DNA from: Bacteroidota bacterium
Lineage (GTDB): Bacteria; Bacteroidota; JABWAT01
Reading direction: 5' to 3'
Length of the DNA stretch: 64,000 nucleotides
Assembly (NCBI GenBank): GCA_013360915.1
Contig: JABWAT010000001.1
Location: forward strand, 5,259-69,258
The notes beneath the pieces were generated by a model that saw only the letters and a list, made by a program, of their open reading frames with translations, did no database searches and was not told where the DNA came from. The position numbers and the translations under genes were made by a program. Shown here in pieces: positions 21,751 through 55,525 of this stretch; position 1 is the first letter of the stretch; each line of letters begins with the position of its first letter.

Positions 21751-21793
21751 TGACTTTTTTGTCTCAATTTACTTGAACCCAGGGTGTTTCGCA

Positions 21794-24700: not shown

Positions 24701-25303
24701 CTGCCCGTCAGCGTTTCAGTTCAGAATATTAACCGGAATCCCGTGCTTAGTGATGTGAAGGATATCTCCGGCGATGAGAACCAACGCATTTCGGTAACTT
24801 TTAAAGCAGCCGATCCAGACCGGCAAGCGCTCACCATCCGTCTTGATGGCGAATTACCTGCTGGTGCTACTTTCGATGTAAAAACACTGGTTTTCACATG
24901 GACCCCTGGATATACTCAGGCAGGCAACTACGGGCCGTTTACACTGACCGCTGTTGATCCTGAAGGCGCCCAGGCTGAGGCCACTTTCAATCTGACAGTG
25001 AAGAACATCAATCGTAAACCTGTTCTTGCCGTGAACGGAACAAGAACGGTTATGGCTGGTGAAGCGATTCGCCTTACTGCCACTGCCTCCGATCAGGATG
25101 AAGAGACCCTCTCGCTTGGTGTTAAAAACAATCCGGCCGGATCAGGATTTAATCCGGCTAACGGAGAGTTCAGCTGGGATAGCACGCTGCCGGGGACCTA
25201 TACCATTGATTTCACAGTTAATGATGGTATCGATACTGTTACGGAATCGGTAACCATCACCGTGAATCCGAAGCCGGTTGCACCTCAGGGTGGAGGAAAC
25301 TGA
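21794..25303 (+). CDS. secreted LVIVD-repeat beta-propeller protein with 9 cadherin-like / putative-Ig (He_PIG, dystroglycan-type) domains
   Basis: The ATG at 21794 yields the signal peptide MTKFFLFSAVITSVATLSFSPIQAQ. LVIVD-like blades are present (LFVVDKEEGIKVFDIS, LLVADGPEGLKVFTL). Repeated units of the form NRxP...DPD...LPxGAxFD...F(S/N)WTPxxEQ(S/A)GxY...V(T/S)V.NVNR follow. Confidence 0.8.
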   Translation: MTKFFLFSAVITSVATLSFSPIQAQKPGPGKGSLTYVKRGTEGDATYLRSVIESDKLFVVSQSKGVYTLKVHNGDSLTQISNNSAEVGLLTGGIAKNGDFLYITDNLNGILVFDTRGEKLEKLFSFKPVTEVWDVAVKGDILYAAEASAGLTSYQLNPDGSFTKLSNYKTVSRWSWAWRTQIVNDTLFVVDKEEGIKVFDISTPASPRYLSSFKTGGTPKDIIKSGSRLLVADGPEGLKVFTLNSAGFARLIESVPTRGDAQSILQSGKYFFLASGTDGIYILSYSATGSLTADFRTKEEGEIISITKLNENVFASSSEGILLYKYNSPPIIESISNQVVDENALLTFARKGFDPDGSKVIISAENLPEGAEWNIEQGTFTWTPTYEQSGRYRIYFAITEDTDAALYDVDTVTVVVNHVNRSPSLALVEPVTIPENKPFELVISSGTDPDREDEGKLVHFARQMPQGAAFDPATLKFSWTPTYEQSGNYPVQFGVNDPAGLEAVVTFNVTVTHVNRPPVLAEIGPKTVNENEGLPFIVKWSDPDKEDDGKLRMSTTALPEGASFDLVSGSFNWTPTFEQSGTYTIRFTVEDSDSDGAGIQSDSEEITITVNHVNRAPVLYLVKDQSTKENELLEFRLTGADPDVEDLGKLVFSGKDLPKGSELKDSTFIWTPDFFQAGTYTLNFKISDPSGLTAAQDMKMTVENVNRNPVIEPVNAVLDAKENSLFTYQFRITDPDKEKLTLTLLPLPAGATFDAEKQLFTWTPTYEQSGTYDLTLAAKDPLDGTDQVTFAISVANVNRFPVFADIPSQLVAENKPLMLTVTATDPDRQQVTLDITGLVQGMDFNVMTGSLNWTPDFEQAGSYTVTVTATDEEGAKTDKQVQITVSNVNRLPEFTPVEPVSVNENEALRLVIVAQDPDRQVLTYSSQDLPQGARLGSQDGVLEWTPTFEQAGPYTIQVKATDPEGGFSVLPVSVSVQNINRNPVLSDVKDISGDENQRISVTFKAADPDRQALTIRLDGELPAGATFDVKTLVFTWTPGYTQAGNYGPFTLTAVDPEGAQAEATFNLTVKNINRKPVLAVNGTRTVMAGEAIRLTATASDQDEETLSLGVKNNPAGSGFNPANGEFSWDSTLPGTYTIDFTVNDGIDTVTESVTITVNPKPVAPQGGGN
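22775..25270 (+). repeat. array of 9 tandem ~92-aa cadherin-like domain repeats (protein-level, diverged)
   Basis: Unit boundaries are marked by VNRSP, VNRPP, VNRAP, VNRNP, VNRFP, VNRLP, INRNP and INRKP. Each unit carries a WTP(T)(Y/F)EQ(S/A)G(T/S/P/N)Y core. Confidence 0.8.
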
Positions 25304-27496: not shown

Positions 27497-30400
27497 TCAG
27501 AAAATGGCCCGTACTTCGGCCTTCAACGTATGAATTACCGGTTCCTCATTGATTTTCCGTCCATCGTAGGTAAAAAATGCGGTCACCATCTGACTAACCT
27601 GATAGTCGAAAAAGAAACTCCAGCGCAGCAATCTTCCACCCGGATTCCCATTGGTTAGTTCATATGGAACCTGATTCACACCTTCAGGTGATTTTAAAGA
27701 GGTTTGGCTCCATTCCCCTTCGGCTCTGAGGCGACCTTTTTGCGGAATGGACCAGATTAACCGGCCGGTTTCGCTGAGAATGAATGCATTTTGATCCTTC
27801 CGGCCGGACTGCCACCGGTAATCGGCATTTGACTTCAGGCCCGCTTCCCACCCTGCCAGAAAACGGTAGCTGACATCGGGGACAACTGACAGGCTGTTTA
27901 TCAGGAAGTCAGGTCGTAAGCCGGATGCACTCTCGTATCCGGTGACAGAAAAACCGGCATCGGTTCTGGTCGTCCAATTCTGCCAGGGACGGGCATTTAA
28001 CCGGATGGAATACTCCTCATAGCGTCGTTTTTCGCTGTCAATTGAATATTGCACCAGACTTTTTCTGGTCTCATAACGGAACCGCCAGTTCATCAGCCGG
28101 TTATTTGGATCGAGATAGAAATCCTGAATCAATTGCCGGAGTCCGGAAAGTGTATTGGGTTCCTTGAAAAATGTACTCAGATTTAAAAAGTAGATATCAG
28201 TTACCCGGGAGGTTTTTGATTTTTCCTCGATTCGAAGAACCGTTTCTGATGTCCAACGCTGACGGATTTCATCGGGTAAAACAGAAAACACCGGATGAAG
28301 AGAAGGATTCAGGTTTAGTCTCCACTGTGTTTTAAGATCCACGATTGGTTCGAGTGTTTCTCCGGGGTAGGTCCTCAGGATATAGTCTCCGTCATCGAAA
28401 CGGGTCAATTCAAATTCATTGTCTTCCGGTATCCCATTCTCATTCCTGTCTACCCAGATGTAGTTACCATATCCTGGCTGCACCTTCACAAAAAACCGGT
28501 CCATCCTCGACGTTTTCTGGGTGTTAACCTGGTAATCCCAGTCAAGCACTACGGCTTCATCAAAAGGTGCCCACCGGGCAGACATATCCACCAGAGTTGC
28601 TTCTGTGTTCTGGTTCCCCTGTTCACGAAACGGTTTAGTAAAATATTTCCGGTAATGGGTTACCATAAGAGATCCGGTCAGGGGGTCATCAGAAAGGGTT
28701 CTTGCCTCCAGTTTTCCAGTCCAGGCCGAGGCAGAAGGAGTCAGACTTCCGGCCACGGGTTCCGATTCGTTCCTCACCTTTAATGATGAATTGGCTGAAT
28801 AACCAGAGGTCGTGAGCCTGAGGCCTCCGGTTCCTTCAACTGCTCTGAATGAACCAGTCAGCAATGAATCAACGGGGCCCCGGTTTTCTCTGTTTTCATA
28901 TAATCCCGAGAAAAATGGAGACAGATGCTCAAACCTGAAATCGCCATCCAGGGCATGTTGGGTCCACCTGGTTGAAGCACGGGAAAGGGACTGCCTGGAT
29001 TTGGAAACGTTAACCCGGTAATCAGTAAAGAGCGGATTAAACAGGTACTGACTGATCTGACCCTTTATCTGGTCGGTCGATAAGTCATTACCCCTGGAAA
29101 ACCGGCTGTAAGAGGTTTGAAGAGTCAGCGTTTTTGATTGCCAGCTGGTTCCTGCTTCCCATTGTCTTTCCAGGGAGGATTCGAGCGGGTCCACGCCCAG
29201 ATTGCGGTAAAAATCAACATCCTGATTCCGGTCAGGTGACTGATAACCGGCTCCCTGGTATCTCTGAAATCCGGAAACAGACCACACCCCGCGTGCTGCA
29301 GTCAAGCCGGGGAAAGACAAGGAATCAGAGTTCCATGACAGCCTGTTAATGACCGCTCCGTCATTGGATTGCTCGTTGCTACCTTCCGAGAGCAGGTTTC
29401 GGTCCACGGAGGAAACAGACCATTCATTAATCCACTTTAAACCGGCAATGGGTGTCCAGATGGTCCGGGAATTCACCGATTGTGAAGAGACGGGAACCGG
29501 TAGGAAATAAACTGGTTCATAATTCCCACCCGATTGTGTCCATTCATAGACACCAATGCTCCGACGGATGTAGGACCCCCTGCCTTGCTCCACTTCGGAA
29601 AACCGTATGTTATACAAGGCCATCGGATGTCCTGGTGCATAGCGATAAACCGCGATCAGTCCCTGAGTGGTTAATGTATCTGCCTTCAGGTAAAATCCAA
29701 GGCTTTTGCCGGTCACAGGTTCCCGTCCCACCGAATCAATACCTGACCTGAACGCCTTTGTTTGATCATTTCCTGCCTGCCGGATGATGTCCCTGTCGGC
29801 CCGGGTTAATTCTGCCTCAACCGGAGTATTTGGATTGTCGGCTTCACGAAGGAAATGTATGGTTGATTGAAAGGCCCCATCAGACAGCCGGATCCCCGCT
29901 TCACCCGAATAGAAATCCCGGGCGAACTGCCGGTCGGAATATTCAAAATCCACGGTGACACGTGAAGCTGAGGTTATTAGATTGGCAGGAGTAAAGCTGA
30001 TCTCGCCTGAGGCATAGTCAATCACATAATCGTTGCTTTCACCCCGTGTGAGCTGAACACCATTCAGATAGACCCTTTCTGAACCTGCCAGAACCAGGAT
30101 GAATTTTTCCTGCTTTTTACCCCTCAGCCGGTAAGGTCCCTGACTCCCATCTGTTCCATTGAACGTATTTGATGTCCAAATTCCCTTCATGTTTGCAAAT
30201 CCTAATCCCGTCCGGAAAGTGGACCAATCGGCCTGCAAATCCAGGCCCTGTAATTTTCGGGTGTAGGAGGAAAGTTCATATCCTGCACGTGTGACCTGAT
30301 AGTCCCCCAACGTCATCTGGTAAATGGGATGTTTGAGCCGGATATATACCTGGTCTATTTCCTGAAGGGTTTGCGTGTTTCCCTCCGGTTGAATCGGTAA

Positions 30401-30958
30401 GTTTTCGTCGGTCAGGATCGCTGCGATTTCTACATCGTCGGTCAGTTGTCCTTCCAATTCAAGCCTGAATCCGCTGTTGACGGCCAGATCGCGGTTCGAT
30501 CCCAGGGTCACACCCCGGACGAAGGAACCCGATTTACGCAACTTTCGGTCACTTCTCCATTGCTGGAAGAAATCGGGTCCGGTTGGTTGTTCAGAAACAG
30601 CCAGATTGGCATCGGTGGGTGTTTTCCCAAGGGCATACCGACGGTATTCCTTCTGGAAAACAAATGGATAGTACCGGTAACGAAGGTATAGGGTGTCTGC
30701 CGGATGGTTTTTCAGCCAATCATCTAACCCCCTTACAAGCAATGTACCTGTTACCTGGTCATACAGAACCGAGAGGGTGGTGTCTGTAACTGAAAGTGAA
30801 AAGGAATCGGGAAGAAGTAATTCGGACCGGCCGGTTGAGACCGGATTACCAACCTGACCATGTAATGCCACTGAATCCTGATTAGCCACCCAAAGCTGCG
30901 AGTATGCATTAAATGGGCAAATTATCCCTATCAGGAAGAATATATTACTCCATTTCAA
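27497..30958 (-). CDS. large hypothetical outer-membrane beta-barrel protein (1153 aa)
   Basis: Signal peptide MKWSNIFFLIGIICPFNAYSQ, a long run of amphipathic beta-strand-like segments rich in Y/W/R, and a C-terminal ...AEVRAIF. I recognise no family. Confidence 0.6.
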   Translation of the reverse strand: MKWSNIFFLIGIICPFNAYSQLWVANQDSVALHGQVGNPVSTGRSELLLPDSFSLSVTDTTLSVLYDQVTGTLLVRGLDDWLKNHPADTLYLRYRYYPFVFQKEYRRYALGKTPTDANLAVSEQPTGPDFFQQWRSDRKLRKSGSFVRGVTLGSNRDLAVNSGFRLELEGQLTDDVEIAAILTDENLPIQPEGNTQTLQEIDQVYIRLKHPIYQMTLGDYQVTRAGYELSSYTRKLQGLDLQADWSTFRTGLGFANMKGIWTSNTFNGTDGSQGPYRLRGKKQEKFILVLAGSERVYLNGVQLTRGESNDYVIDYASGEISFTPANLITSASRVTVDFEYSDRQFARDFYSGEAGIRLSDGAFQSTIHFLREADNPNTPVEAELTRADRDIIRQAGNDQTKAFRSGIDSVGREPVTGKSLGFYLKADTLTTQGLIAVYRYAPGHPMALYNIRFSEVEQGRGSYIRRSIGVYEWTQSGGNYEPVYFLPVPVSSQSVNSRTIWTPIAGLKWINEWSVSSVDRNLLSEGSNEQSNDGAVINRLSWNSDSLSFPGLTAARGVWSVSGFQRYQGAGYQSPDRNQDVDFYRNLGVDPLESSLERQWEAGTSWQSKTLTLQTSYSRFSRGNDLSTDQIKGQISQYLFNPLFTDYRVNVSKSRQSLSRASTRWTQHALDGDFRFEHLSPFFSGLYENRENRGPVDSLLTGSFRAVEGTGGLRLTTSGYSANSSLKVRNESEPVAGSLTPSASAWTGKLEARTLSDDPLTGSLMVTHYRKYFTKPFREQGNQNTEATLVDMSARWAPFDEAVVLDWDYQVNTQKTSRMDRFFVKVQPGYGNYIWVDRNENGIPEDNEFELTRFDDGDYILRTYPGETLEPIVDLKTQWRLNLNPSLHPVFSVLPDEIRQRWTSETVLRIEEKSKTSRVTDIYFLNLSTFFKEPNTLSGLRQLIQDFYLDPNNRLMNWRFRYETRKSLVQYSIDSEKRRYEEYSIRLNARPWQNWTTRTDAGFSVTGYESASGLRPDFLINSLSVVPDVSYRFLAGWEAGLKSNADYRWQSGRKDQNAFILSETGRLIWSIPQKGRLRAEGEWSQTSLKSPEGVNQVPYELTNGNPGGRLLRWSFFFDYQVSQMVTAFFTYDGRKINEEPVIHTLKAEVRAIF

Positions 30959-36331: not shown

Positions 36332-36973
36332 CTAACCGTTTGCTGCAACCAGTGTATCCAGTTTATCGAGGATCTGTTTGACATAATCCTGCGACTCCGG
36401 ATCGGGTGCGAAGGACTTATCAATCAATTGAATAAACTCAACAGACTTAGCGTAATCCTTGAGTTTAAACTGTATCTGGGCGCCAGTCAATGCCCCATCA
36501 CTGTGATTGATTGAGTTGTCATACTGGAAAACGTAACTGGGCCTTTCTGTTGTGAGAAATGTTTTCAGTTTGGCCAGCATGTCGGATGTTGGCATGATTG
36601 CATGATCGACGGTGTTATCCAGATCGTACAATTCAATAAAGGAATACGGTATGATCGCTTCCTTTTCATCGTTCATGCACATGGTGAGATATTTTACAGC
36701 TGAATCGGGTTGATTCAGGCGATAGTATCCCCATCCCAGAGCCAATTCTGCATTGGGCAACCGCTTACCATCTTTTATCAGTTCGAGGTAGGCCTGTTTA
36801 AAGGTTTCCAGGGCACTTGCATAGTTCCCGGATTTAAACTGGGCCCAGCCATCATCGACCTTATCCTGAATGGTCGGATCAACTTCTTCTTCTCCGCAAG
36901 AGATGATTCCGGCAGCCAGAGTGATTCCGACAAGTAAACGGAGAATGTATTTGGTGATTACAGTAGAAAACAT
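36332..36973 (-). CDS. TPR-like lipoprotein
   Basis: Lipobox LAAGIISC. TPR-like helices (GNYASALETFKQAY, ELALGWGYYRLNQPDSAVKY). It starts 10 nt downstream of the giant T9SS gene. Confidence 0.6.
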   Translation of the reverse strand: MFSTVITKYILRLLVGITLAAGIISCGEEEVDPTIQDKVDDGWAQFKSGNYASALETFKQAYLELIKDGKRLPNAELALGWGYYRLNQPDSAVKYLTMCMNDEKEAIIPYSFIELYDLDNTVDHAIMPTSDMLAKLKTFLTTERPSYVFQYDNSINHSDGALTGAQIQFKLKDYAKSVEFIQLIDKSFAPDPESQDYVKQILDKLDTLVAANG

Positions 36974-36983
36974 GGTACTCTCC

Positions 36984-39900
36984 TTACTTCACAAGAGTCA
37001 TTTTTAAAGTTTTGACCACATTACCAGCAATGATCTGGTAGAAATAGACTCCGGAGGAAGCCACTCCTTCTGTGGTTTTTCCATTCCAGGTAGCCGTATG
37101 GAATCCGGCAGGTTTCAGTTCATTGTTCATCAGAACAGCAACTTCCTGTCCCATCACGTTGTAGACCCGGATGGTGACTGCCGTTTCAGCCGGCAGCGAA
37201 AATGGAATGACCGTTGTTGGGTTGAACGGATTCGGGTAGTTCTGGCTCAGAACCACTTCGGTTGGTAACTCGGGGCGGTTCTCGTTGTAGAACAGTGCAA
37301 GCGTTCCTGTACGATTAATGGAGGCAGTAACCTTTCCATTTTTGCCCTGTCCAGGCAGCCAGTTCCATTCTTTGGTCTCCTCATTCCACTGGTAAGCAGA
37401 CACAAAGCGTTCATCCTTCCATTCAGGCTGATGAGCATAACTCATTGAAATCTGCACTGATTTGTTAAAGGTCAGGTTCCTGTTAAACTGAACCATTCCT
37501 CCTACCGGCTTCATATCCATGTCAAAGGCATACTTATGATCCAGATCTGCATAATCAAGTGCCAGATAGCTCGTGGTGTTCACCACTCCTGATGGAAATT
37601 CGAGCTGGATTTTGAAATCTTCCAGAGGAACGGTATGCTTTCCACCCGGCGAGAGGCGAAGAATATGCAAACGTTTTTCTGCAAGCCCGGTATTTCCTGC
37701 TTCATCCTGTCCTGAAACACTGAATATGAACAGACCCGTATCAAGATCGTGGAAATAGGTCATGTAGATCCGGTAACCCGAATCAAAGAGCATATGTTCT
37801 TTCGGATTGACTGTCTCTCCGGACAAAGTGGCCGTAACAGCAGGCTCTCCAACCAAATCAGTGCCATATGAATAAGCCAGTGAAAGGTTGTTGCCCAGTG
37901 CATTATCAGTTGAATGAAGCATCCAGGCAGTTACTGCTGGTGCAATACCATCGACAACAAGAGTCCTGCTGGCCGGATTGGAAACACGGGTTCTTCCGGT
38001 CTGATCACGTGCGGTAACCCGCCAGTACACCGTTCCATCTGGTAATCCATCAGTAAATGTATGGTTCAGACCTGTGACTTCGGCCGTTTTCAGGATGTTG
38101 CTGAATTCGGAATCTGAAGCAATCTGGATCGTGTAGGTAATGACCTCATTTTCATCGGGATTAAGTGCATTTTGCCACGAGAAAACCACATTCTGACCAG
38201 GTACTTCTGCGTGATTGGCCGGTGCAATTAGCCCGAACGAAACCGGGCCAACAACTTTCACCGTGATTTTTATCGGAATTTCGACCAGCTCACTTGAAGG
38301 GTCATTGCTGTAAACGCGAATGGCAGACTGATGAACCGTTCGTGAAGGACCGGCGGTAAAAGTCAGGGTTATGTCCTGTGAGGCTTCCGGACTGAGGGTA
38401 CCACTCGAAGGATTAGCTGTAAAAGTGGTACCGCCATCATCTACATATAAAAGCATGTTAGCAAACAGGCGGTTTGTCGATGCATTATGACTTGTGGACA
38501 TGCCAGGGTAAATAACAGCACCAATCACATTTCCTGCAGGATTCACAGCAATAACCCGGTTACCATTCCCATCCGAGGCAAGCAGGGTTCCTCCTGCATT
38601 GAGTTCCGGATTGGAATAATTGGAGTTCCACCAGTAACTGGGTGTTCCATCCAGTCCACTGAATATCGGGTGACTTGGAAATGGCAAGGTGGACATGTTC
38701 AGTGAACCACTTACATTTTGCTGCGGTCCGGGAGTAAATGGCAAATACCCACCGGCAAGGATTCCTCCCTGAATTTTCCAGTTGTTACTTAAGGCATAGG
38801 TGCTGATCACAACCCCTCCGCCCTGATCCACATAGGCCTTCAGAGCATCACCAATGGCAACAGGGTTGGAAAAGTTGTTGTTGGTCCAAACAAATACTCC
38901 TGCATAAGGGGTCAGTTGTTCAACCGTCAGGGTTGAAGGACTCGAAAGTAAATCGAACTGATCGGATGTAAACTGGCTGGTGGCCACCAGATTATTCCTC
39001 ATATTCTCAAGTGCGCTTTGACTATCGGCCGCAAGAAGAAGGTATCGCTTACCGGATACCTGCCGTTTTGGAGAATCCAGTCCGGATACAAAGGTTTCTC
39101 TCCAACCTGCCGGAGATTGACCCGTAGCAGTTATTCCATCCGGAACCGGTTCACCCGGTCTGGATAGTACCTGAATCGGCCCATTGAGGCTCCATAAAAG
39201 GTCAGTTCCGCCGGTATTCTGAATGGTAAGTATTTTATTTGCCGTTTCGCCAGCAATCATTTCGAAAACCAGAGAATCCGGCATCACCTTAATGACCGGC
39301 GGGTTAAAGGCGATTCCACTGAGGGAAACCGTTTTTTCAGGAAAGTCCTCATCATTCGAGAGAATGGTCAGAGAACCAGAAAACTCACCAATTTCAGTAG
39401 GTGCAAACATAACATCAAGAACTTTTGATGAATCCGGATCCAATGAAAAGCTCTCGGTGAAACTGGTTTGAAATACCGACGATGATGAATTTACAGAAGT
39501 AACCTGTAAGGGTTCATCTCCTTCGTTTTTAATGGTCAGCGATGCAGAATTGATGGTTCCGACTTTGGTCTGAGAAAACTGGAATGAAGTGGGATTAAGA
39601 GACAGCACTGGTCCGCCCAGGACATGGAGATCGACCGTAATGGTTTCGACTTCATTCTCAGGATCATTGCTGAATATAGACAGGGTGGAAGTATAATCAC
39701 CTGCCTGTGAGCCAGCTTTTATTTTCAGATTGACCACCTGACTTTCACCAGGTAATATCTCACCTGAAGCTGGTTCAAGAGAGAGACGTCCTCCGGATCC
39801 TCCTGCCACATGAAGCAGCATATGGGCAAACAGCCGTTGTGCTGGCTCATTGGCCTGGTTCAGAAATCCTGGGAAAATAACTGCGGCTATTACCGATTCG

Positions 39901-42900
39901 TCATCATTGATACCAACCACTCTGTTTCCGTTGGTATCAAAGGCCAATACTCTTCCCCCTTGGTTTAGTGACGGGTTTGAATAGGAAGAATTCCACCAGT
40001 AAACCGGATTGACTTCAATTCCGTTAAACACAGGATGATCTGGTTCTGTTAAAGTGCTCAAGTCAATGGTACCGGAAACACTGGTTGTCGCCGACGGAAT
40101 AAAGGGCAGATATCCTGCATTCAGAATACCACCCTGAATGGACCAATTGGTTGACAATGCATAGGTGCTGACGATAAGCCCACCACCCTGATCCACATAG
40201 TCTTTAAGCACATCGCCAAGGGCGGTTGGATTGTTAAACGATCCATCAGACCACAATAAAATGGCATCATAGTCTTTTAACTGATCCAGGGTCACCGAAT
40301 TCGGATAGGCAAGAAAATCGATGTCTTCAGGAGCAATCAATCCGGTAGCGGTTATGGAATTCTTTGCATATTGCATATAAGTCTGGTTTTCGGCAGCCAT
40401 GAAGAGAAAACGGTTCCCGGATGAGGCTTTTTTCCGGTTCGACCCCATGACCCATTTTTCAATACCGTCACCCGCCGCCAGCCCGGATGCGGTTCCATCA
40501 ACCGCATTAAATACCGGTTCATGATACTGCTTACCCATGTCTTCAAGAACCGGTGGGGTAATGCTCCATGTAAGAGGTGCCAATCCTTCGTTCTTAATGG
40601 TAACTTCAACAATACTGGAATCACCAGGATACAGCTCAGCCTGTATGAAATCAGGATTAATCATAATTGCAGGTGTATAAAGTCCCAACCCTTCGAAAGC
40701 TACCTGATAGGAACCACTGTCAGGATCGTTGCTGAATAGGGTGAAGAGACCGGAGACCAACTGATCATCTGTTGGAATAAACCATGCATTCAGGACTGTA
40801 TCCTCATTTGCTTCCAGGTTAAAGGAGCCGGAAAACATGATTCCGGCCAATTCTGAATTGGAACCAACATCGGTCACAGAAAGTGTTTCTTCCCCTTCAT
40901 TGGAAATGGTTACCAATGCATAGGAAGTGTCTCCCACATAGGTGTTTGGAAAATATACCGTCGAAGGAGTCACTGTTATATCCGGATACCCGATCACATG
41001 AAGGCTGACTGTCAGCGTTTGCGATTCCATTTCAGGATCATTGCTGTAAATCCGGAATGTTGGAGAATAATTACCTGGCTGAAGTGAACCGGTCTTCAAT
41101 TTCAATTCCACGGTTTCACTTTCATCGGGTTCCAGAATTCCTGCCGTGGGATTCAGACTGAGAAGACCACTGTTTCCGCTGACATGCAACAACATGTTTG
41201 CAAACAGCCGATGAGTATTCAGATCCGAACTGCTCATAAACCCGGGAAATATCACTGCAGCCATGATGTTTTCTGAGTCATTGATACCAACCACCTTGTT
41301 TCCATTGGTATCGAAAGCAAGTACCCTTCCTCCAGTATTAAGAGAAGGATTTGAGTAATTCGAGTTAGACCAATAAGCGATATTGCTGGTGATTCCTGTG
41401 AAAACCGGGTGGTTGGGTTCTGAGATTGAACCTTCTGAAATGGTGCTGGAAACACTGGTCGTTGATGATGGAAGGAAAGGCAGATAACCGCCGTTCAGAA
41501 TTCCACCGGCAATGGCCCAGTTCGTTGTGAGCGCGTAGGTGCTGACAATGACCCCTCCGCCGATATCGGCATAGTTCTTCAGAACATCACCGATTAAAGT
41601 CGGATTTGAAAATGAACCATTGGACCATACCAGAACTGCGCTGTAGGGCACCAATTGTTCGATGGTCAGCGTGGACGGATTTGATAACAGATCGATCTGA
41701 TCTGACCCAATCAGTCCGGTGGCTGTAATATTTGATTTGGCATTTTCCATGTCTGTTTGGCTGTCAGCAGCAATAAACAGGTACTTTTCTGAAGCCATCG
41801 ATTTTGAGTTCCGGGCAGATCCGGAAATAAACATATCCGTTGGGCCTGCAGCAGAGAAACCGGAAGCGGTGGTCCCTGTGGCATCGGGAACCGGGAGTGG
41901 AATCGTTCTCCTTTTTTCAGAATTCAGATCATCCTGATCAATGCTCCAATGAAGCGTTCCGAGTCCGTTATTGGTGATGGTCACTTCAAATGTGGTAGAA
42001 TCACCTGAAAAGAGATCTGCAGAGAAGGAAGTTGGGTCAACGTTGAATACCGGGTTGTGGTATCCGAATCCAATCAGTTCAACCCCATATTCCGGACTTT
42101 TTGGATCATTGCTTATAATGGTCAAAGCTGCAGACACTTCCCCGGCAGTAAGCGGATCAAAGGTGATTGCAAGCTGAGCGGTGTCATCCGGAGGCAACAG
42201 GAAGGGCTCAAAGCTTTCCGGGATAAAAACATCGGGCAAGGAGCTGCTTGCCGAAGTCACAGAAAGTGTGTCAGTTCCGGCGTTCATCACATCCAGATAT
42301 AAAGTAAGCGTCTGCCCGACCAGAACTTCACCAAAATTAAGCAGACTGGTTCCTGTCTGAATATTGGGTACTCCGGGAATTTCCATGCTGACCGGGACGG
42401 AAACCGTCGGATTCATTGCATCATTGGTATAAATCTGAAGAGAACCCTCATAAAGTCCGGGTTGACGGGTTCCGGATTTGAATTTTACTTCGAAGTCATA
42501 TGAATCGCCAGGATTAATGGATCCTTCTTTAGTAAGTGCGCTGAACCAACCGGAAGCACCGCCAACCTGAAGCAGCGAATTGGCCAGAAGGCGGTAAGCT
42601 TTTGTATGGGTCTCACCGAGGAAGCCCGGATAAATAACAATACCCATCACATTGCCAGCCTGATTAATTCCAACGGCCCTGTTGCCATTGGTATCGGTGG
42701 CCAGCAGGATTCCATCTCCGTTCATGGCTGGGTTTGAGTGATTTCCGTTCACCGGGAAAGTGATGGTTCCTGTAATTCCTTCAAAAACAGGGTGCCCGGC
42801 ATTTTGCTGCAGGCTGAGATCGATCGTGCCAGACACACCCTGGGAGGGACCGGGGGTGAATGGAGATTTTCCGCTTTGAAGAATTCCACCGGCAATGGCC

Positions 42901-43538
42901 CAGTTATTTGTCAGGGCGAATGTGCTCAGCACCACTCCACCACCCATGTCTACATAGTCATTCAATGCATTTCCAATGGTGGTTGAATTACTGAATGAGT
43001 TATTGGACCAAACAAGAATGGCCGTGTAAGAACCAAGATCAGTTGCCGAAAGGGTCGAGGGCGGACTGGCAAGCAAATCGAACTGTTCAGTGGTAAAGAA
43101 GCCGGTTGCAACCAGATTGTTCCTCACCGTTTGGATAACAGACAGTCCATCTGAGGCCATTAACAAATAACGGGGGCCTGCAGACACACGGGCACCTGGT
43201 TTGAGACCAGATTCAAACTGGGTGGTTACCAATTCTGCCCCACCCCCTGTTGCCTTGACTCCGCTGTTGTACGTATCGCCCGACTGCCTGAGTAATTTAA
43301 ATGGCGCTTCGAGATTCCAATGAAGAGTGTCATCTCCATTATTGGTCATTTTAATGATTTCTGTGATGGAATCACCGGGAGAAAGAATAACACTCAGTGA
43401 AGTGGGTGTAATGCTGATCCCCGGGCCCTGAGCTTCTGATTTCCGCAGAATCTGGTCACCAGGGGCGGAGGCTGCAGACAGAAGAGGTAGCAGCAAAACA
43501 AGTACTGCACTTATGACTCGGTAAAATGGAGTTTTCAT
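36984..43538 (-). CDS. giant secreted multi-domain protein, T9SS cargo (2184 aa from the ATG at 43538)
   Basis: The signal peptide MKTPFYRVISAVLVLLLPLLSAASA begins at the internal ATG at 43538. The body holds four large repeats, Ig-like / choice-of-anchor-D-like domains and a type-A T9SS C-terminal domain. Confidence 0.85.
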   Translation of the reverse strand: MKTPFYRVISAVLVLLLPLLSAASAPGDQILRKSEAQGPGISITPTSLSVILSPGDSITEIIKMTNNGDDTLHWNLEAPFKLLRQSGDTYNSGVKATGGGAELVTTQFESGLKPGARVSAGPRYLLMASDGLSVIQTVRNNLVATGFFTTEQFDLLASPPSTLSATDLGSYTAILVWSNNSFSNSTTIGNALNDYVDMGGGVVLSTFALTNNWAIAGGILQSGKSPFTPGPSQGVSGTIDLSLQQNAGHPVFEGITGTITFPVNGNHSNPAMNGDGILLATDTNGNRAVGINQAGNVMGIVIYPGFLGETHTKAYRLLANSLLQVGGASGWFSALTKEGSINPGDSYDFEVKFKSGTRQPGLYEGSLQIYTNDAMNPTVSVPVSMEIPGVPNIQTGTSLLNFGEVLVGQTLTLYLDVMNAGTDTLSVTSASSSLPDVFIPESFEPFLLPPDDTAQLAITFDPLTAGEVSAALTIISNDPKSPEYGVELIGFGYHNPVFNVDPTSFSADLFSGDSTTFEVTITNNGLGTLHWSIDQDDLNSEKRRTIPLPVPDATGTTASGFSAAGPTDMFISGSARNSKSMASEKYLFIAADSQTDMENAKSNITATGLIGSDQIDLLSNPSTLTIEQLVPYSAVLVWSNGSFSNPTLIGDVLKNYADIGGGVIVSTYALTTNWAIAGGILNGGYLPFLPSSTTSVSSTISEGSISEPNHPVFTGITSNIAYWSNSNYSNPSLNTGGRVLAFDTNGNKVVGINDSENIMAAVIFPGFMSSSDLNTHRLFANMLLHVSGNSGLLSLNPTAGILEPDESETVELKLKTGSLQPGNYSPTFRIYSNDPEMESQTLTVSLHVIGYPDITVTPSTVYFPNTYVGDTSYALVTISNEGEETLSVTDVGSNSELAGIMFSGSFNLEANEDTVLNAWFIPTDDQLVSGLFTLFSNDPDSGSYQVAFEGLGLYTPAIMINPDFIQAELYPGDSSIVEVTIKNEGLAPLTWSITPPVLEDMGKQYHEPVFNAVDGTASGLAAGDGIEKWVMGSNRKKASSGNRFLFMAAENQTYMQYAKNSITATGLIAPEDIDFLAYPNSVTLDQLKDYDAILLWSDGSFNNPTALGDVLKDYVDQGGGLIVSTYALSTNWSIQGGILNAGYLPFIPSATTSVSGTIDLSTLTEPDHPVFNGIEVNPVYWWNSSYSNPSLNQGGRVLAFDTNGNRVVGINDDESVIAAVIFPGFLNQANEPAQRLFAHMLLHVAGGSGGRLSLEPASGEILPGESQVVNLKIKAGSQAGDYTSTLSIFSNDPENEVETITVDLHVLGGPVLSLNPTSFQFSQTKVGTINSASLTIKNEGDEPLQVTSVNSSSSVFQTSFTESFSLDPDSSKVLDVMFAPTEIGEFSGSLTILSNDEDFPEKTVSLSGIAFNPPVIKVMPDSLVFEMIAGETANKILTIQNTGGTDLLWSLNGPIQVLSRPGEPVPDGITATGQSPAGWRETFVSGLDSPKRQVSGKRYLLLAADSQSALENMRNNLVATSQFTSDQFDLLSSPSTLTVEQLTPYAGVFVWTNNNFSNPVAIGDALKAYVDQGGGVVISTYALSNNWKIQGGILAGGYLPFTPGPQQNVSGSLNMSTLPFPSHPIFSGLDGTPSYWWNSNYSNPELNAGGTLLASDGNGNRVIAVNPAGNVIGAVIYPGMSTSHNASTNRLFANMLLYVDDGGTTFTANPSSGTLSPEASQDITLTFTAGPSRTVHQSAIRVYSNDPSSELVEIPIKITVKVVGPVSFGLIAPANHAEVPGQNVVFSWQNALNPDENEVITYTIQIASDSEFSNILKTAEVTGLNHTFTDGLPDGTVYWRVTARDQTGRTRVSNPASRTLVVDGIAPAVTAWMLHSTDNALGNNLSLAYSYGTDLVGEPAVTATLSGETVNPKEHMLFDSGYRIYMTYFHDLDTGLFIFSVSGQDEAGNTGLAEKRLHILRLSPGGKHTVPLEDFKIQLEFPSGVVNTTSYLALDYADLDHKYAFDMDMKPVGGMVQFNRNLTFNKSVQISMSYAHQPEWKDERFVSAYQWNEETKEWNWLPGQGKNGKVTASINRTGTLALFYNENRPELPTEVVLSQNYPNPFNPTTVIPFSLPAETAVTIRVYNVMGQEVAVLMNNELKPAGFHTATWNGKTTEGVASSGVYFYQIIAGNVVKTLKMTLVK
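36987..37253 (-). other. Por/T9SS type-A C-terminal sorting domain
   Basis: VLSQNYPNPFNPTTVIPFSLP...VRVYNVMGQEVAVL...AGFHTATWNG...ASGVYFYQI...KTLKMTLVK is the canonical CTD pattern. Confidence 0.88.
38256..43418 (-). repeat. about 3.75 tandem copies of a ~457-aa (~1.37 kb) super-repeat inside the giant gene
   Basis: Unit starts are at about aa 70, 524, 984 and 1442 of the ORF-track protein. Each unit holds a short Ig-like domain (..TLHW.L), a ~200-aa alpha/beta module (RYLL.A.D...GGGV.(L/V/I)ST(F/Y)AL..NW.I.GGIL...HP(V/I)F.G...D.NGN(R/K)...PG(F/M)...RL(F/L)AN.LL) and an Ig-like domain. Units 1-3 also carry a choice-of-anchor-D-like domain. Confidence 0.8.
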
Positions 43539-43696
43539 GTTTCTCTTGTCTTTCGTATTGGTTAATAGGTGAAAACACTGCCTGATCATCGGGTGATCAG
43601 GCGGTTCTAATTTATCTCTAATCATAAAGTAGGTTCTTATTTACCTAAGAATCAAGATTGGCATGGAATAAGTTGACCTGCATCAAAGTGTATGGA

Positions 43697-44566
43697 TCAT
43701 TCACTTTTCAGGGAATCGATCAATTCATCAGCCAACAGCGGGTGGTCGGTAGCAAGAATCCGATAGCCTGAACTTAACAGACTCACCCAGGACTTCCGCC
43801 GGGTTGAATCTTGCAGAAGGTCTGCAGAACGGAAGGTGCCGATGATGGATGCAATGCCATTCCGATGCAGGGTATCGAGTAATTCTGCAGGTGGTTCCTC
43901 AAGTCCGGTAAATGCCATTACCTGCCCGACCGGAATCCCGGTTTGCCTGAACTGGTACCATTCGTCCAGGTTTCTGATCGTAACGGACAGATGCAGATCG
44001 GGGTTTTGCTGGTGAATATAAACCGCATCCTCACCACGGTAGGTAATTATCGTTGCACGATCCGCTGCACGATAATTTCCGAGTACCCTTAGGACTTGAT
44101 CAATGGGTACCGTTCGTTTGATATCAACGGCCAGGAGTGTACGGTCTTTTGCCCAAACAAGAACAGAATCGAATCTTGGAATCCTCAATCCGGTTTCAAA
44201 GCCCAGAGGATCAATCAGATTAACTGACTGAAGACTATCCCAGGTCCACGTGCTGATCAGCCCCTTTCCAGTCGATGTGCGGCCCAGAGTATCATCGTGA
44301 TAAAGGACCAGCACACTGTCGCTGGTCATGGCCACGTCACACTCAATCAGCATGAGTCCTGCCGATGATGAAACACGGAATGTTTCCAGCGCATTTTCCG
44401 GCAACCCTTTGGCGGGTCCTCCCCGGTGTGCACTTACGATGGGATATACGGGTGAATCTGCACTCAGTAACCGGTGAAGGTCGGCTGCCTGATCCGGAAA
44501 TCTATCATCAGTTCCCTGACAGGAGACCATTGAAAGAACCAGAAGAATGATTCCAACTGATTTCAT
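43697..44566 (-). CDS. glycerophosphodiester phosphodiesterase family lipoprotein
   Basis: Lipobox VLSMVSCQG and the GDPD motif VSAHRGGPAKGLPENALETF. This is the second GDPD paralogue in the window. Confidence 0.8.
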   Translation of the reverse strand: MKSVGIILLVLSMVSCQGTDDRFPDQAADLHRLLSADSPVYPIVSAHRGGPAKGLPENALETFRVSSSAGLMLIECDVAMTSDSVLVLYHDDTLGRTSTGKGLISTWTWDSLQSVNLIDPLGFETGLRIPRFDSVLVWAKDRTLLAVDIKRTVPIDQVLRVLGNYRAADRATIITYRGEDAVYIHQQNPDLHLSVTIRNLDEWYQFRQTGIPVGQVMAFTGLEEPPAELLDTLHRNGIASIIGTFRSADLLQDSTRRKSWVSLLSSGYRILATDHPLLADELIDSLKSE

Positions 44567-52571: not shown

Positions 52572-53474
52572 ATGTTTAATTCGATGAAAACCATACTGCT
52601 GGGATTAATTTTTTTTATGGCCACTCCTCAAACACTGACCGATTTTCCACTGGTTAAGTCGGCGACTGGAAAGGTGGTCCGGTTATCGGTCCCCCCTCCG
52701 GATGGAAATCAGATTCTTCCCAGACCAATAGATGTCTGGTTGCCACCAGGTTATGGTCAGGACACCTCGGCTCACTATCCGGTTTTATACATGCACGATG
52801 GTCAGAATCTGTTTGATTCTGCCTTGTCTTTTATTGGTGTGGATTGGGGGGTGGATGAGTGGATGACCCGGTTGATCAACGAGGGAAAAATTCGTCCGGC
52901 CATTGTGGTTGGTATCTGGAACAGTCCCGAACGGGTTGCTGACTACATGCCGGAAAAACCAGTGAAAACCTTAAACCGATCCATCCTTTCAGAGTTATTT
53001 AAACGATTTACCGATCTGAACAAGAGTGATGATTATCTGAAGTATCTGGTTTTCACGCTTAAGCCTGAAATCGACAGGCAATTCAGAACAATGCCAGATG
53101 CCCCCAATACGATCATCATGGGATCGAGCATGGGAGGGTTAATTTCATTGTATGCCATGTGCGAGTACCCAGCTGTTTTTGGAAGTGCCGGTTGTGTAAG
53201 CACACATTGGCCGGCTGCTGACGGACTGGTGCTTGGATATCTGAAAACCAACCTTCCCAACCCCGGATACAACCGATGGTACTTCGATTTCGGGACTGAG
53301 ACGCTGGACAAGGATTACGAACCATTTCAGGTCAGAGCGGATACCATCATGCAACAAGCCGGGTATCAACCGGGTAAGGATTGGATCACCCTGAAGTTTG
53401 AAGGCGCCGATCACTCTGAACGATCCTGGAACAAGCGCCTGGACAATCCCTTGTTGTTTCTGCTCGGACGCTAA
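52572..53474 (+). CDS. esterase-family alpha/beta hydrolase (enterochelin-esterase/IroE-like 'putative esterase')
   Basis: YPVLYMHDGQNLF, the nucleophile elbow GSSMGG, a C-terminal H in ADHSE and an N-terminal signal-like segment. Confidence 0.78.
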   Translation: MFNSMKTILLGLIFFMATPQTLTDFPLVKSATGKVVRLSVPPPDGNQILPRPIDVWLPPGYGQDTSAHYPVLYMHDGQNLFDSALSFIGVDWGVDEWMTRLINEGKIRPAIVVGIWNSPERVADYMPEKPVKTLNRSILSELFKRFTDLNKSDDYLKYLVFTLKPEIDRQFRTMPDAPNTIIMGSSMGGLISLYAMCEYPAVFGSAGCVSTHWPAADGLVLGYLKTNLPNPGYNRWYFDFGTETLDKDYEPFQVRADTIMQQAGYQPGKDWITLKFEGADHSERSWNKRLDNPLLFLLGR

Positions 53475-54874
53475 TTCCGGCTCAGTTTCTCAATCCGTTT
53501 TCTGATTTCGGATTCACAAACTTTACAGAAGGCTGGTCGGTTTCTCGAAAACATGATACAATCGATTTCGGGTCTGTAAACACCTTTTGCCAGATAGCCT
53601 CCTCCCTCAAACGCACCGGTTATTCCCATCAGTGAATCAGGGGAGAGGAAAAACCTGGTGAGTTGCTTTTCATGGCGGAACAAGGCTTCCATCTCAGAAA
53701 CTGGTGCTCCCGACGCGGTCAGTTCCCTCCTCTTTTTCTGGATTTCCACCATGGCCGAGTCATAGCCCGATTGATTCCATGGAGTTGGAATCCGGACGCC
53801 TGGCGACAGCAAGGATTCCCATTTGGGCCTTCCGCCCGGAAGTGAGGACAGGTTTGGTTCACGGGGTTCCGGACCTGCCTTAACCACGTACGCAATCTGA
53901 GAAGTGTAGTATTCATCTCCCAATCCGGCGAATGAATGTCCGAATTCATGAATAAATACGTAGGGAGATTGTTCATTATCAGAGGCTGAAACCGCATAAA
54001 GGTTGTAAATACCACCACCTCCATATTTCCTGCTATTCACCAGAACCAACAAGACATCCCAGGGATAGGAAGCTGCCAGGTTCATGATCATTCCTGGATC
54101 TGAGCTGAGAATATACCGGTCAGAATTGAAAAAATTATAGGTAAAACCCAGAGGGCCCTGTGCCCATTTCTGATTAACCGGGTCCGGAATTCCTTCCGTT
54201 TCTGATGGGATCATGGCAGCACGAAGGTTAAACCGGTCTTTCATGGAGAGAAATGGTTCTGTGTTGAATAAATGACCGGAAAGACGGCCTGCGTCGTTAA
54301 AAAATTTCGCAGTATCAGCCTCGGTGTATCCATCCCCCAGAATCAGTACATCCACCTTTCCCTGGGGTTCTCCTGATAAAAAGAAGTCTCTTCCAACCTG
54401 TCTGACGGGCGGCGAGAATGGAACCAGACCAGAATCCGGAACCCTTAAGCTCAACATGGGATGAAAGATACCGAGAGAGTCATTCCAGACAGACAGAACC
54501 AGATCGGCTGACACAACCGGTTTTGGAAAACGAACCGATTCCCGAAAAATCTGAACAACCGAGTCGAGTCCATCCTGAGTGGTTTTATATTCACCGAAAA
54601 TGCTGTTGAATTCTGTAGCGTAGAGAACGGTTCCGGAGTTCATAATCTTCAGCTCGGCGCGGTAAAGTGCATGGCCAGCCAGTGAGTCTGAAAGGTCCTC
54701 AGGTCCGGGCCAGGGTCCTTCTGTTACCCATCGGTCCGGAACCACCTTTTCTTCCCAGGCATGCCCGACATGGGAATATTCAAAACGGATGGTGGTTGAA
54801 AAATCGAGGTTCCGTTGAGTGGAGCATGACAACCCCGTAAAAACCAGAATGAGTAATAAAAAAATTCTGAACAT
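53471..54874 (-). CDS. peptidase M64 (IgA-peptidase-like zinc metalloprotease)
   Basis: HEFGHSFAGLGDEY zinc motif. The internal ATG at 54874 gives the signal/lipoprotein-like N-terminus MFRIFLLLILVFTGLSCS. Confidence 0.82.
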   Translation of the reverse strand: MFRIFLLLILVFTGLSCSTQRNLDFSTTIRFEYSHVGHAWEEKVVPDRWVTEGPWPGPEDLSDSLAGHALYRAELKIMNSGTVLYATEFNSIFGEYKTTQDGLDSVVQIFRESVRFPKPVVSADLVLSVWNDSLGIFHPMLSLRVPDSGLVPFSPPVRQVGRDFFLSGEPQGKVDVLILGDGYTEADTAKFFNDAGRLSGHLFNTEPFLSMKDRFNLRAAMIPSETEGIPDPVNQKWAQGPLGFTYNFFNSDRYILSSDPGMIMNLAASYPWDVLLVLVNSRKYGGGGIYNLYAVSASDNEQSPYVFIHEFGHSFAGLGDEYYTSQIAYVVKAGPEPREPNLSSLPGGRPKWESLLSPGVRIPTPWNQSGYDSAMVEIQKKRRELTASGAPVSEMEALFRHEKQLTRFFLSPDSLMGITGAFEGGGYLAKGVYRPEIDCIMFSRNRPAFCKVCESEIRKRIEKLSRN

Positions 54875-54967
54875 GGTAAAATCTCCCTTCAGGCAATATA
54901 CAACTTCTTTTCCTGCTTTGAATCGGTTAAAAACAGGCCGATATTCTGAACACGAACAACCCATATT

Positions 54968-55525
54968 ATGAATGCCCCTGCTTCTTTTCTCAACCCGCTG
55001 ATCCCTGTTTTCAGGTTTTGTCCTTCATGCGGTAAACAGACCTTCTCACCAGAAAGTGAAAAATCATTTTCCTGTTCTGCGTGTGGACTCCGTTATTTTA
55101 TCAATTCGGCCTGTGCTGTTGCTGTAATTCTGATCAACGACAACGGAGAGCTTTTACTCACGCGACGTGCCTTTGAACCAGCCAAAGGTTTACTGGATCT
55201 TCCCGGCGGATTTGTGGATATCGGCGAACCTGCAGAAGCAGCGATGAGACGTGAAATCCGGGAGGAATTGGGTTTGGAGCTTTCCTCTCTATCATTTCTG
55301 TGTTCCCGACCCAACCGGTATGATTATGCAGGGGTTACCTATTATACCACCGATCTGACATTTACTTCCCCTCTTCCTTCTGGCACCCATCTTTCACTTT
55401 CTGATGAAATCGATTCTGTGGAATGGGTCCGACCCGAATTGATTCCTTTTGACCGCATCGGTCTGGAATCGATCAGGGAGATTCTGCGTTACTATCAAAC
55501 CAAACAGACCGGAGCATACCGATGA
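54968..55525 (+). CDS. NUDIX hydrolase with an N-terminal zinc ribbon
   Basis: CPSCG...CSACG ribbon and the Nudix box GGFVDIGEPAEAAMRREIREELGL. Confidence 0.85.
   Translation: MNAPASFLNPLIPVFRFCPSCGKQTFSPESEKSFSCSACGLRYFINSACAVAVILINDNGELLLTRRAFEPAKGLLDLPGGFVDIGEPAEAAMRREIREELGLELSSLSFLCSRPNRYDYAGVTYYTTDLTFTSPLPSGTHLSLSDEIDSVEWVRPELIPFDRIGLESIREILRYYQTKQTGAYR

Follow-up and report, generated by a model that had tools for sequence, protein, structure and literature searches.

The window analysed here, a stretch of 64,000 nucleotides from a Bacteroidota bacterium (assembly GCA_013360915.1, contig JABWAT010000001.1, positions 5,259 to 69,258 of the forward strand), carries on its minus strand a gene for a 2184-residue secreted surface protein (36984..43538 in window coordinates, which are used throughout). 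The protein contains a super-repeat of about 458 residues, and each of its four units holds a module of about 208 residues. This module is predicted to adopt a class-I glutamine amidotransferase (GATase1)/ThuA-like fold, appears to have lost the catalytic triad, and is placed inside a split immunoglobulin (Ig)-like domain. The features of the locus are listed below in the order of the protein, followed by the two flanking features; TPR stands for tetratricopeptide repeat and T9SS for type IX secretion system.

36984..43538, minus strand: whole gene, 2184-residue secreted surface protein; stop codon at 36984-36986, longest open reading frame (ORF) reaching 43625
43464..43538, minus strand: signal peptide MKTPFYRVISAVLVLLLPLLSAASA, residues 1-25, read from the translation
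43305..43430, minus strand: unit 1, N-terminal half of the split HYDIN/ASH-type Ig domain, residues 37-78 (spliced PF22544 match of 27.1 bits across the junction)
43182..43304, minus strand: unit 1, low-complexity linker before the module, residues 79-119 (predicted local distance difference test score, pLDDT, below 50 for the equivalent in unit 3)
42555..43181, minus strand: module copy 1, predicted triad-less GATase1/ThuA-like, residues 120-328 (Lys at the family's conserved Tyr103)
42369..42554, minus strand: unit 1, C-terminal half of the split Ig domain, residues 329-390 (in-silico splice)
42054..42368, minus strand: unit 1, choice-of-anchor D/ASH Ig domain, residues 391-495 (profile matches)
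41934..42053, minus strand: unit 2, N-terminal half of the split Ig domain, residues 496-535 (BACON_2 positions 2-39 in the intact protein)
41172..41795, minus strand: module copy 2, residues 582-789 (motif blocks, ThuA profile, alignment A1)
40986..41171, minus strand: unit 2, C-terminal half of the split Ig domain, residues 790-851 (in-silico splice, 31.0 bits)
40674..40985, minus strand: unit 2, choice-of-anchor D Ig domain, residues 852-955 (profile matches)
40554..40673, minus strand: unit 3, N-terminal half of the split Ig domain, residues 956-995 (unit model and in-silico splice)
39798..40421, minus strand: module copy 3, residues 1040-1247 (motif blocks, ThuA profile, alignment A1, unit model)
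39612..39797, minus strand: unit 3, C-terminal half of the split Ig domain, residues 1248-1309 (in-silico splice, 32.2 bits)
39300..39611, minus strand: unit 3, choice-of-anchor D Ig domain, residues 1310-1413 (top-scoring copy)
39180..39299, minus strand: unit 4, N-terminal half of the split Ig domain, residues 1414-1453 (41.4 bits; spliced sequence 1-94 on profile positions 1-98 of 100)
38433..39056, minus strand: module copy 4, the copy modelled with AlphaFold2, residues 1495-1702 (ThuA profile, model, Foldseek)
38244..38432, minus strand: unit 4, C-terminal half of the split Ig domain, residues 1703-1765; this unit lacks the choice-of-anchor D domain
37239..38243, minus strand: non-repeated, beta-rich C-terminal region, residues 1766-2100 (weak SusE-like and Ig_Rha78A_N-like matches only)
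36987..37238, minus strand: type-A T9SS C-terminal sorting domain, residues 2101-2184 (TIGR04183, 37.6 bits)
36332..36973, minus strand: downstream gene for a 213-residue TPR lipoprotein, 10 nt past the stop (TPR matches, lipobox)
43577..43605, no strand assigned: terminator-like hairpin between the GDPD gene and the start at 43538

The longest ORF (36984..43625, minus strand) encodes 2213 residues, reduced to 2184 if translation begins at MKTPFYRV (43538). The latter start gives a typical signal peptide, MKTPFYRVISAVLVLLLPLLSAASA. A terminator-like hairpin with a 13-bp stem at 43577-43605, scoring on both strands, is found between the GDPD gene (43697-44566, minus strand) and this likely start. 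Since the hairpin falls within the 29 codons by which the longest ORF exceeds the shorter form, the start at 43538 is favoured. Gene callers in other assemblies chose either the long form (2213 residues) or a later Leu (2170 residues), and the presumed homologue P0007 was ruled out as a separate relative, being the protein of the window itself called from a later start. At the other end of the protein, NCBIfam recognised a type-A T9SS C-terminal domain (CTD) at residues 2101-2180 (TIGR04183, cutoff 23), for which the Pfam model PF18962 reached 23.7 bits, under its cutoff of 27. On these grounds the gene product is predicted to be a surface protein exported by Sec and T9SS. An earlier inspection of the letters of the window (the sequence-only reading) had described a 2184-residue protein with a signal peptide, a type-A T9SS CTD and about 3.75 copies of a long repeat, a description that our analysis confirmed.

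Self-comparison of the protein in sliding 100-residue chunks revealed three parallel diagonals with offsets of about 461, 458 and 455 residues and E-values from 1e-10 to 1e-48. The units cover residues 37-495, 496-955 and 956-1413 and a shorter stretch at 1414-1765, amounting to 3.77 copies of a super-repeat of about 458 residues. In the window they occupy 38244-43430, within 12 nt of the span 38256-43418 proposed earlier. The conserved blocks listed by the sequence-only reading were all present in each of the four copies: (R/K)(Y/F)L(L/F).A(A/S)(D/E), GGG(V/L)(V/I)(L/V/I)ST(F/Y)AL as the core of the long block, HP(V/I)F.G(I/L) and RL(F/L)A(N/H).LL were found once per copy by regular expression, and W(S/T)(N/D), (T/D).NGN and (I/V)(Y/F)PG were seen in 4/4 copies by alignment A1. 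The DNA of the units was merely 65-72% identical, over short stretches, and the longest common exact word was 26 nt, which leaves nothing for an assembler to collapse or expand. Furthermore, the gene was collinear, gapless and 99.98-100% identical in the four Logan assemblies SRR25608333, SRR10914231, SRR10914233 and SRR25608324, with the full 2213-codon ORF on one of the four contigs. Low identity between units and four collinear, independent assemblies together exclude an assembly artefact, against which the earlier reading had advised a check. The four module copies are old and diverged. Copy 1 carries a Lys (SGKSPF) at the 91%-conserved Tyr103 position, which reads GGYLPF in the other three copies and in the family, and may be a degenerate or divergent copy.

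The fold of the module was modelled with AlphaFold2 on copy 4, using an alignment of 42 sequences. The model was of high confidence (pLDDT 97.1, predicted template modelling score (pTM) 0.93) and showed a beta-alpha-beta sandwich, for which Foldseek returned 86 matches in the PDB at E<=1e-3. The top matches were class-I GATase domains (GMP synthase, ADC synthase/PabA, archaeal GuaAA) with E-values around 1e-6 and query TM-scores (TMq) of 0.58-0.66, followed by the ThuA-like structures 4PXY, 4JQS (Bacteroides uniformis) and 4E5V (Parabacteroides merdae) with E-values of 5e-6 to 1.3e-5 and TMq of 0.58-0.60. The module is thus predicted to have a GATase1/ThuA-like fold, as the sequence-only reading had guessed from its strand and helix pattern, the Foldseek E-values for this fold ranging overall from 1e-6 to 1e-5.

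Placement in a named family was less straightforward. The whole protein scored 67.6 bits with the Pfam model of ThuA (PF06283), a value reached only by summing the four copies; single copies scored 15.4-27.4 bits against a cutoff of 33.4 and aligned only to profile positions ~21-143 of 209. A consensus of 133 family modules just passed (33.8 bits, positions 3-158) and gave 20.4 bits with DUF7408. ThuA was the sole recurrent Pfam match, in 19 of 42 family members. NCBIfam has no model for the module, and PDB sequence searches with one module, a four-copy profile and a 42-member profile gave nothing significant; lacto-N-biosidase, proteasome beta and HisH (E 0.5) were rejected as chance-level matches. 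DUF7408, DUF4159, DUF2194, GH42M and GLMA_2nd were all sub-threshold, so that only placement in the superfamily is supported. The NCBIfam models 'NF038129 family PEP-CTERM protein', floc PepA and others were also set aside, their matches being below cutoff and confined to C-terminal tails rather than the module. Literature searches on DUF7408, and on PEP-CTERM proteins with GATase-like domains, found nothing. The earlier statement that the module could not be assigned to a named family therefore largely stands, the match to ThuA being borderline and no confident assignment to a well-characterised family having been found. Within this superfamily, which like its fold was already known, the module forms a new branch that has no model of its own.

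The module was also compared with ThuA and with the catalytic GATases. With ThuA and the ThuA-like structures it shares a triad-less GATase1-like alpha/beta/alpha fold and the motif Y/F-x-D/E-x-GGG followed by a hydrophobic strand. It differs in that single modules remain below the gathering score with only the first ~60-75% of the profile aligned, in TM-scores of only ~0.6 at 14-16% identity, and in being extracellular, repeated and Ig-nested, without a ThuB partner or a thu-type operon. The molecular role of ThuA itself is poorly defined. The catalytic class-I GATases (GuaA, PabA/ADC synthase, HisH), the top structural matches, have the same strand order as the module, and their 'HPLF-G' and 'QFHPE' blocks correspond to its HP(I/V)F-G and (I/V)(Y/F)PG blocks. 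Unlike these enzymes, the module has neither the Cys, His and Glu residues, in place of which it carries aromatic, Pro and Gly residues, nor a synthase partner domain.

The loss of the triad was followed position by position, with conservation computed over 129 modules from other proteins. In a weak alignment to the HisH hidden Markov model (HMM), the (I/V)(Y/F)PG block of the module faces the catalytic QFHPE, such that the positions of the catalytic His and Glu are taken by the (Y/F) and the G of this block. No conserved Cys column was present in these 129 foreign modules. The putative nucleophile position, residue 85, was deduced from the model, where it directly follows beta-4, and not from an alignment; it is Thr, Ala or Val, with Thr in only 63% of 133 modules. 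The Cys-His-Glu triad of the class-I amidotransferases thus appears to have been lost. The positions around the former catalytic cleft are nevertheless the most highly conserved of the domain. Aromatic residues predominate at W56 (95%), Y74 (100%), Y86 (91%), Y103 (91%) and Y/F/W182 (91%), and conservation is also high at S/T57 (88%), N/D58 (86%), D76 (91%), G78 and G79 (98% and 94%), G96 (98%), P105 (89%) and P183 (87%). H128 is conserved in 74% of the modules, with Asp in a further 18%, and D161 in 74%. According to the topology of the model, W56, Y86, Y103 and Y182 (91-95% aromatic) are located just after beta-3, beta-4 and the last strand. This pattern points to family-wide selection on the residues of the former cleft.

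The sequence-only reading had the module flanked by Ig-like domains, three of which it counted per unit. The structure model of a whole unit (pLDDT 79.7) revealed a different arrangement, with four confident strands, a disordered linker of 40-45 residues (pLDDT below 50) and then the module, followed directly by five strands and a complete Ig domain. In intact proteins, BACON_2 matched with its positions 2-39 before the module and, in a homologue, with positions 39-81 after it. Nesting was tested by deleting linker and module in silico and comparing the spliced sequence of ~100 residues to PF22544 (cutoff 25.5). The spliced units 1 to 4 scored 27.1, 31.0, 32.2 and 41.4 bits and those of three homologues 38.7, 38.7 and 42.4 bits. 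All of these matches, from four own and three foreign units, were contiguous, spanned the junction and covered nearly the whole profile. Each unit is therefore best described as one split ASH-type Ig domain, with the module in a loop, and one choice-of-anchor D Ig domain. The insertion amounts to ~250 residues (linker and module) near profile position 40. We consequently place the module, on the basis of profile matches and the unit model, inside one split HYDIN/ASH-type Ig domain and not between two Ig domains. Of the earlier domain assignment, the choice-of-anchor D/ASH domain in units 1-3 was retained (NF012200, 136.2 bits against a cutoff of 45, in four stretches); the number of Ig-like domains per full unit had to be corrected from three to two, the fourth unit being without the choice-of-anchor D domain.

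The cassette consists of an N-terminal Ig half, a disordered linker of ~45 residues, the ~208-residue module, a C-terminal Ig half and a choice-of-anchor D Ig domain, repeated 3.77 times; within it, the module forms an independent fold inserted into a loop of the split Ig domain. Both Ig domains of a unit belong to the HYDIN/ASH/PapD-like and choice-of-anchor D groups (PF22544, PF15780, NF012200), and the unit model matched the tandem ASH domains of ciliary central-pair proteins and of P. gingivalis (2QSV). Unlike the known domains of this type, one of the two per unit is interrupted by the insertion. Foldseek with the whole-unit model gave tandem ASH/Ig matches only and was uninformative on the packing of the two Ig halves. 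The whole cassette was also found in other giant proteins, namely twice in P0008, four times each in P0118 and P0130, three times each in P0027, P0071 and P0047, and in P0026 and P0013.

The distribution of the module was determined by an exhaustive profile search over 1.84 billion representative proteins. It yielded 2,727 clusters at 50% identity with E<=1e-3, of which 1,099 were at <=1e-10 and 112 at <=1e-30; a word-indexed homologue search had found 6 proteins only and badly under-represented the family. A genome scan of a species-representative collection used an alignment built around LADYVDAGGGVV; in this collection, 374 matching stretches were confirmed with the 8-residue seed ADYVDAGG. 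The same collection scanned with alignment A1 gave no match, so the source genome is absent from the species-representative set. Taxonomy and gene neighbourhoods were surveyed for the best 80 loci. These include Calditrichaceae, Chloroflexota, Latescibacterota, Bacteroidota, Planctomycetota, Verrucomicrobiota, WOR-3, Krumholzibacteriota, Acidobacteriota, Gammaproteobacteria, Microcystis, Acidimicrobiia, Zixibacteria, Armatimonadota and one metagenome-assembled genome (MAG) of Thermoplasmatota. The module family spans more than 12 phyla and is not bound to T9SS.

The architectures were equally varied. The stand-alone type of ~255 residues carries the module between a signal peptide and a PEP-CTERM or VPDSG-CTERM tail. 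Other homologues are lipoproteins whose linkers are collagen-like, tandems of 2-4 modules and giants with up to 9-10 copies. Stand-alone PEP-CTERM proteins such as Microcystis WP_375328685.1 are true homologues of the module, with 30-45% identity over the full ~200 residues and the same conserved residues, and differ from the protein of the window in having one module, no Ig host and an exosortase PEP-CTERM anchor instead of the T9SS CTD. The Microcystis members are annotated in RefSeq as just 'PEP-CTERM sorting domain-containing protein'. Export and anchor signals in the homologues comprise PEP-CTERM, VPDSG-CTERM, T9SS CTD, dockerin, RTX and lipoprotein signal peptides; partner domains are VWA, cadherin-like, Big_9, PKD, fn3, LTD, Reelin-B, RTX repeats, dockerin and T9SS CTDs. 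The only catalytic partner, among 17 homologues compared to Pfam and two contig look-ups, was the subtilisin of P0008. The module had been called unusual for a T9SS cargo. This view is not sustained by a large family that is common in secreted and surface proteins of many phyla, often in several copies, and has no tie to T9SS.

Several individual members are worth describing. The closest non-self relative, P0008 (locus L090, 5224-16302, JGI 3300037479), is a 3,692-residue T9SS protein that combines a fervidolysin-type propeptide, a subtilisin S8 domain and a MAM-like domain with two copies of the nested cassette, which here is accessory to a protease. The highest copy number, ten, was seen in an ORF of more than 4,206 residues, open at both ends of its locus (L007, 1-12618), in the Bacteroidetes MAG palsa_971 (PLUL01000065.1). 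A module protein of 2,372 residues in a Thermoplasmatota archaeon MAG (L064, 733-7848, DAIRED010000079.1) reflects either spread across domains or contamination of the bin. At L009, L031, L034/L058, L039, L072 and L080, in Planctomycetota, Acidobacteriota, Anaerolineaceae and WOR-3 genomes, two or three module genes lie in tandem as local paralogue clusters. Finally, P0065, P0078, P0082, P0091 and P0121 in alignment A2 form a stand-alone subfamily in which a lipoprotein-type signal peptide and a brief collagen-like run of G-x-y (e.g. GAPGAPGPAGKPG) precede the module; the Pfam Collagen model matched weakly in 7 of 42 family members.

With regard to function, the interpretation we favour, although with no better than even confidence, is that the module is a non-catalytic ligand-binding unit, the cleft of which would most likely bind polysaccharide, and that the four copies make the protein a multivalent adhesin or tether. 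The former cleft, at the C-terminal edge of the central sheet, would be lined by W56, S/T57, N/D58, D76, Y86, Y103 and Y/F182. Its ligand may be an exopolysaccharide of the cell itself or of a neighbour, or a glycan from the environment. Four modules on Ig stalks could then act through avidity as a multivalent adhesin or matrix tether, and PorU-type removal of the CTD would leave the protein either kept on, or shed from, the outer membrane.

A functional precedent exists in Agd3 of Aspergillus fumigatus. Its N-terminal domain (residues 141-364) adopts a GATase1/ThuA-like fold devoid of the triad, bears conserved aromatics along the same C-terminal sheet edge, acts extracellularly on exopolysaccharide, binds galactosaminogalactan and founded the family CBM87 (PMC7229062). 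In addition, PelA contains a ThuA-like domain for which carbohydrate binding was proposed (bioRxiv 10.1101/2024.06.28.601253). CBM87 is appended once to a CE18 deacetylase; the module of the window occurs four times, nested in Ig domains and with no catalytic domain. Extending the same interpretation to the whole family is a more tentative step. The module may represent a new and widespread extracellular carbohydrate-binding or adhesion family, built on a dead GATase/ThuA scaffold in more than 12 phyla and possibly some archaea. It would tether cells to exopolysaccharide matrices through any available anchor (PEP-CTERM, T9SS, type I secretion with RTX repeats, dockerin, lipoprotein), and one lineage would have nested it in an Ig fold to give giant multivalent adhesins.

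Several points weigh against polysaccharide binding. For all family members this function is inferred only, and it was deduced from topology that the conserved aromatic and polar residues are solvent-exposed and cluster together. PDB sequence and profile searches, in which the presence of the Agd3 chain is unverified, detected no homology to CBM87 and no Agd3- or CBM-annotated chain at E<=10; as no sequence link was found, the parallel is one of analogy, not homology. The fairly conserved His128 and Asp161 (74% each) could form another catalytic or metal site, and the Lys in copy 1 replaces one of the presumed cleft aromatics. Moreover, domain B of GH42 enzymes and the second domain of GlmA, both GATase1-like, act in oligomerisation and not in ligand binding, and GH42M and GLMA_2nd appear as weak matches of family members.

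These last points lead to the possibility that the module is a homotypic oligomerisation or lattice unit, comparable to domain B of GH42 beta-galactosidase, which would build a surface layer or flocs through protein-protein contacts. In addition to the weak Pfam matches of family members to Glyco_hydro_42M and GLMA_2nd, a weak PDB-profile match to beta-galactosidase over the Y-x-D-x-GGG region points in this direction, as do the architectures with up to 10 copies and the many stand-alone members with PEP-CTERM, a class that includes the floc-forming PepA. The GH42M and GLMA matches were, however, all far under threshold (E 0.05), and conservation peaks at the former catalytic cleft where a large flat interface would have been expected instead. 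We regard this explanation as unlikely.

Less probable still is an enzyme with a new active site, formed by His128, Asp76, Asp161 and the tyrosines, for instance in a hydrolase or lyase with an extracellular polymer as substrate. The conservation of D76 (91%), Y103 (91%), H128 (74%, with Asp in a further 18%) and D161 (74%) is compatible with such a site, and ThuA-fold domains can host unrelated active sites, as illustrated by the 2-Tyr-1-carboxylate iron site in the ThuA-fold domain of dimethylformamidase (PMC7686228). ThuA itself is part of the ThuAB system that forms 3-keto-disaccharides (PMC8121099). On the other hand, other residues stand at H128 and D161 in roughly one member in four, and there is no conserved nucleophile. 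The architectures are adhesin-like, with repeats on Ig stalks; 4-10 enzyme repeats per chain would be uncommon, and the surroundings are virtually devoid of partner enzymes, redox partners and ThuB-like genes.

That the module is a genuine ThuA orthologue displayed at the surface for trehalose or disaccharide oxidation, as the summed and consensus ThuA scores and the ThuA-like structures among the Foldseek matches could suggest, is highly improbable: every copy is sub-threshold over a part of the profile, the copies are repeated and extracellular, and neither a ThuB-type Gfo/Idh/MocA oxidoreductase or sugar transporter in the window neighbourhood nor any recurring gene at the 80 loci was found, results which largely refute this explanation. 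An inert spacer is just as hard to believe in view of the strong purifying selection on specific cleft residues across the 2,727 clusters, and so is a four-copy structure created by assembly, in view of the diverged units and the collinear assemblies described above.

The interest of the module lies mainly in the breadth of the family and its complete lack of annotation. A large domain family is exposed for which neither Pfam nor NCBIfam has a model, and pipelines now label its members by their sorting tags only, or as hypothetical. A family model with corrected boundaries would improve the annotation of thousands of giant 'hypothetical' surface proteins. Domain insertion is neatly illustrated by the nested Ig and alpha-beta cassette, which boundary predictors will mis-split. 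If the module does bind glycans or matrix, it would provide a handle on the attachment of many uncultured lineages to flocs, biofilms and particles, the lineages concerned being Planctomycetota, Chloroflexota, Calditrichota, Latescibacterota, WOR-3, Acidobacteriota and bloom-forming Microcystis. Together with CBM87, it would then make two independent examples of an amidotransferase fold reused for binding.

The TPR lipoprotein gene follows the giant gene after a gap of 10 nt and encodes a lipobox (IISC) and TPR matches. As no terminator-like site was present in this gap, the two genes are probably co-transcribed, in line with the sequence-only reading. The gene was not conserved beside the closest homologues P0008 and P0009, and a functional link is therefore unproven. 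Across the 80 loci no recurring neighbour gene was found, and no neighbour family occurred in more than 7/80. The neighbours in the window are housekeeping genes (GDPD, CobW, MFS, FtsB, enolase, PurD, PEPCK).

Three other regions of the window were noted. An ORF of 1153 residues at 27497-30958 (minus strand), without a Pfam match at E<=1e-5, lies upstream of genes for an NHL-repeat protein and a sugar epimerase. At 21773-25303 (plus strand) a 1176-residue surface-type protein with He_PIG, Big_9, cadherin-like, PKD and LVIVD repeats is encoded, in which a regular expression for the NYPNPF-type T9SS tail found no match. Two adjoining genes on opposite strands at 53471-57561 encode secreted-type peptidases, one of family M64 (IgA-peptidase-like, 497 residues, minus strand) and one of the S9 prolyl-oligopeptidase family with PD40 repeats (679 residues, plus strand).

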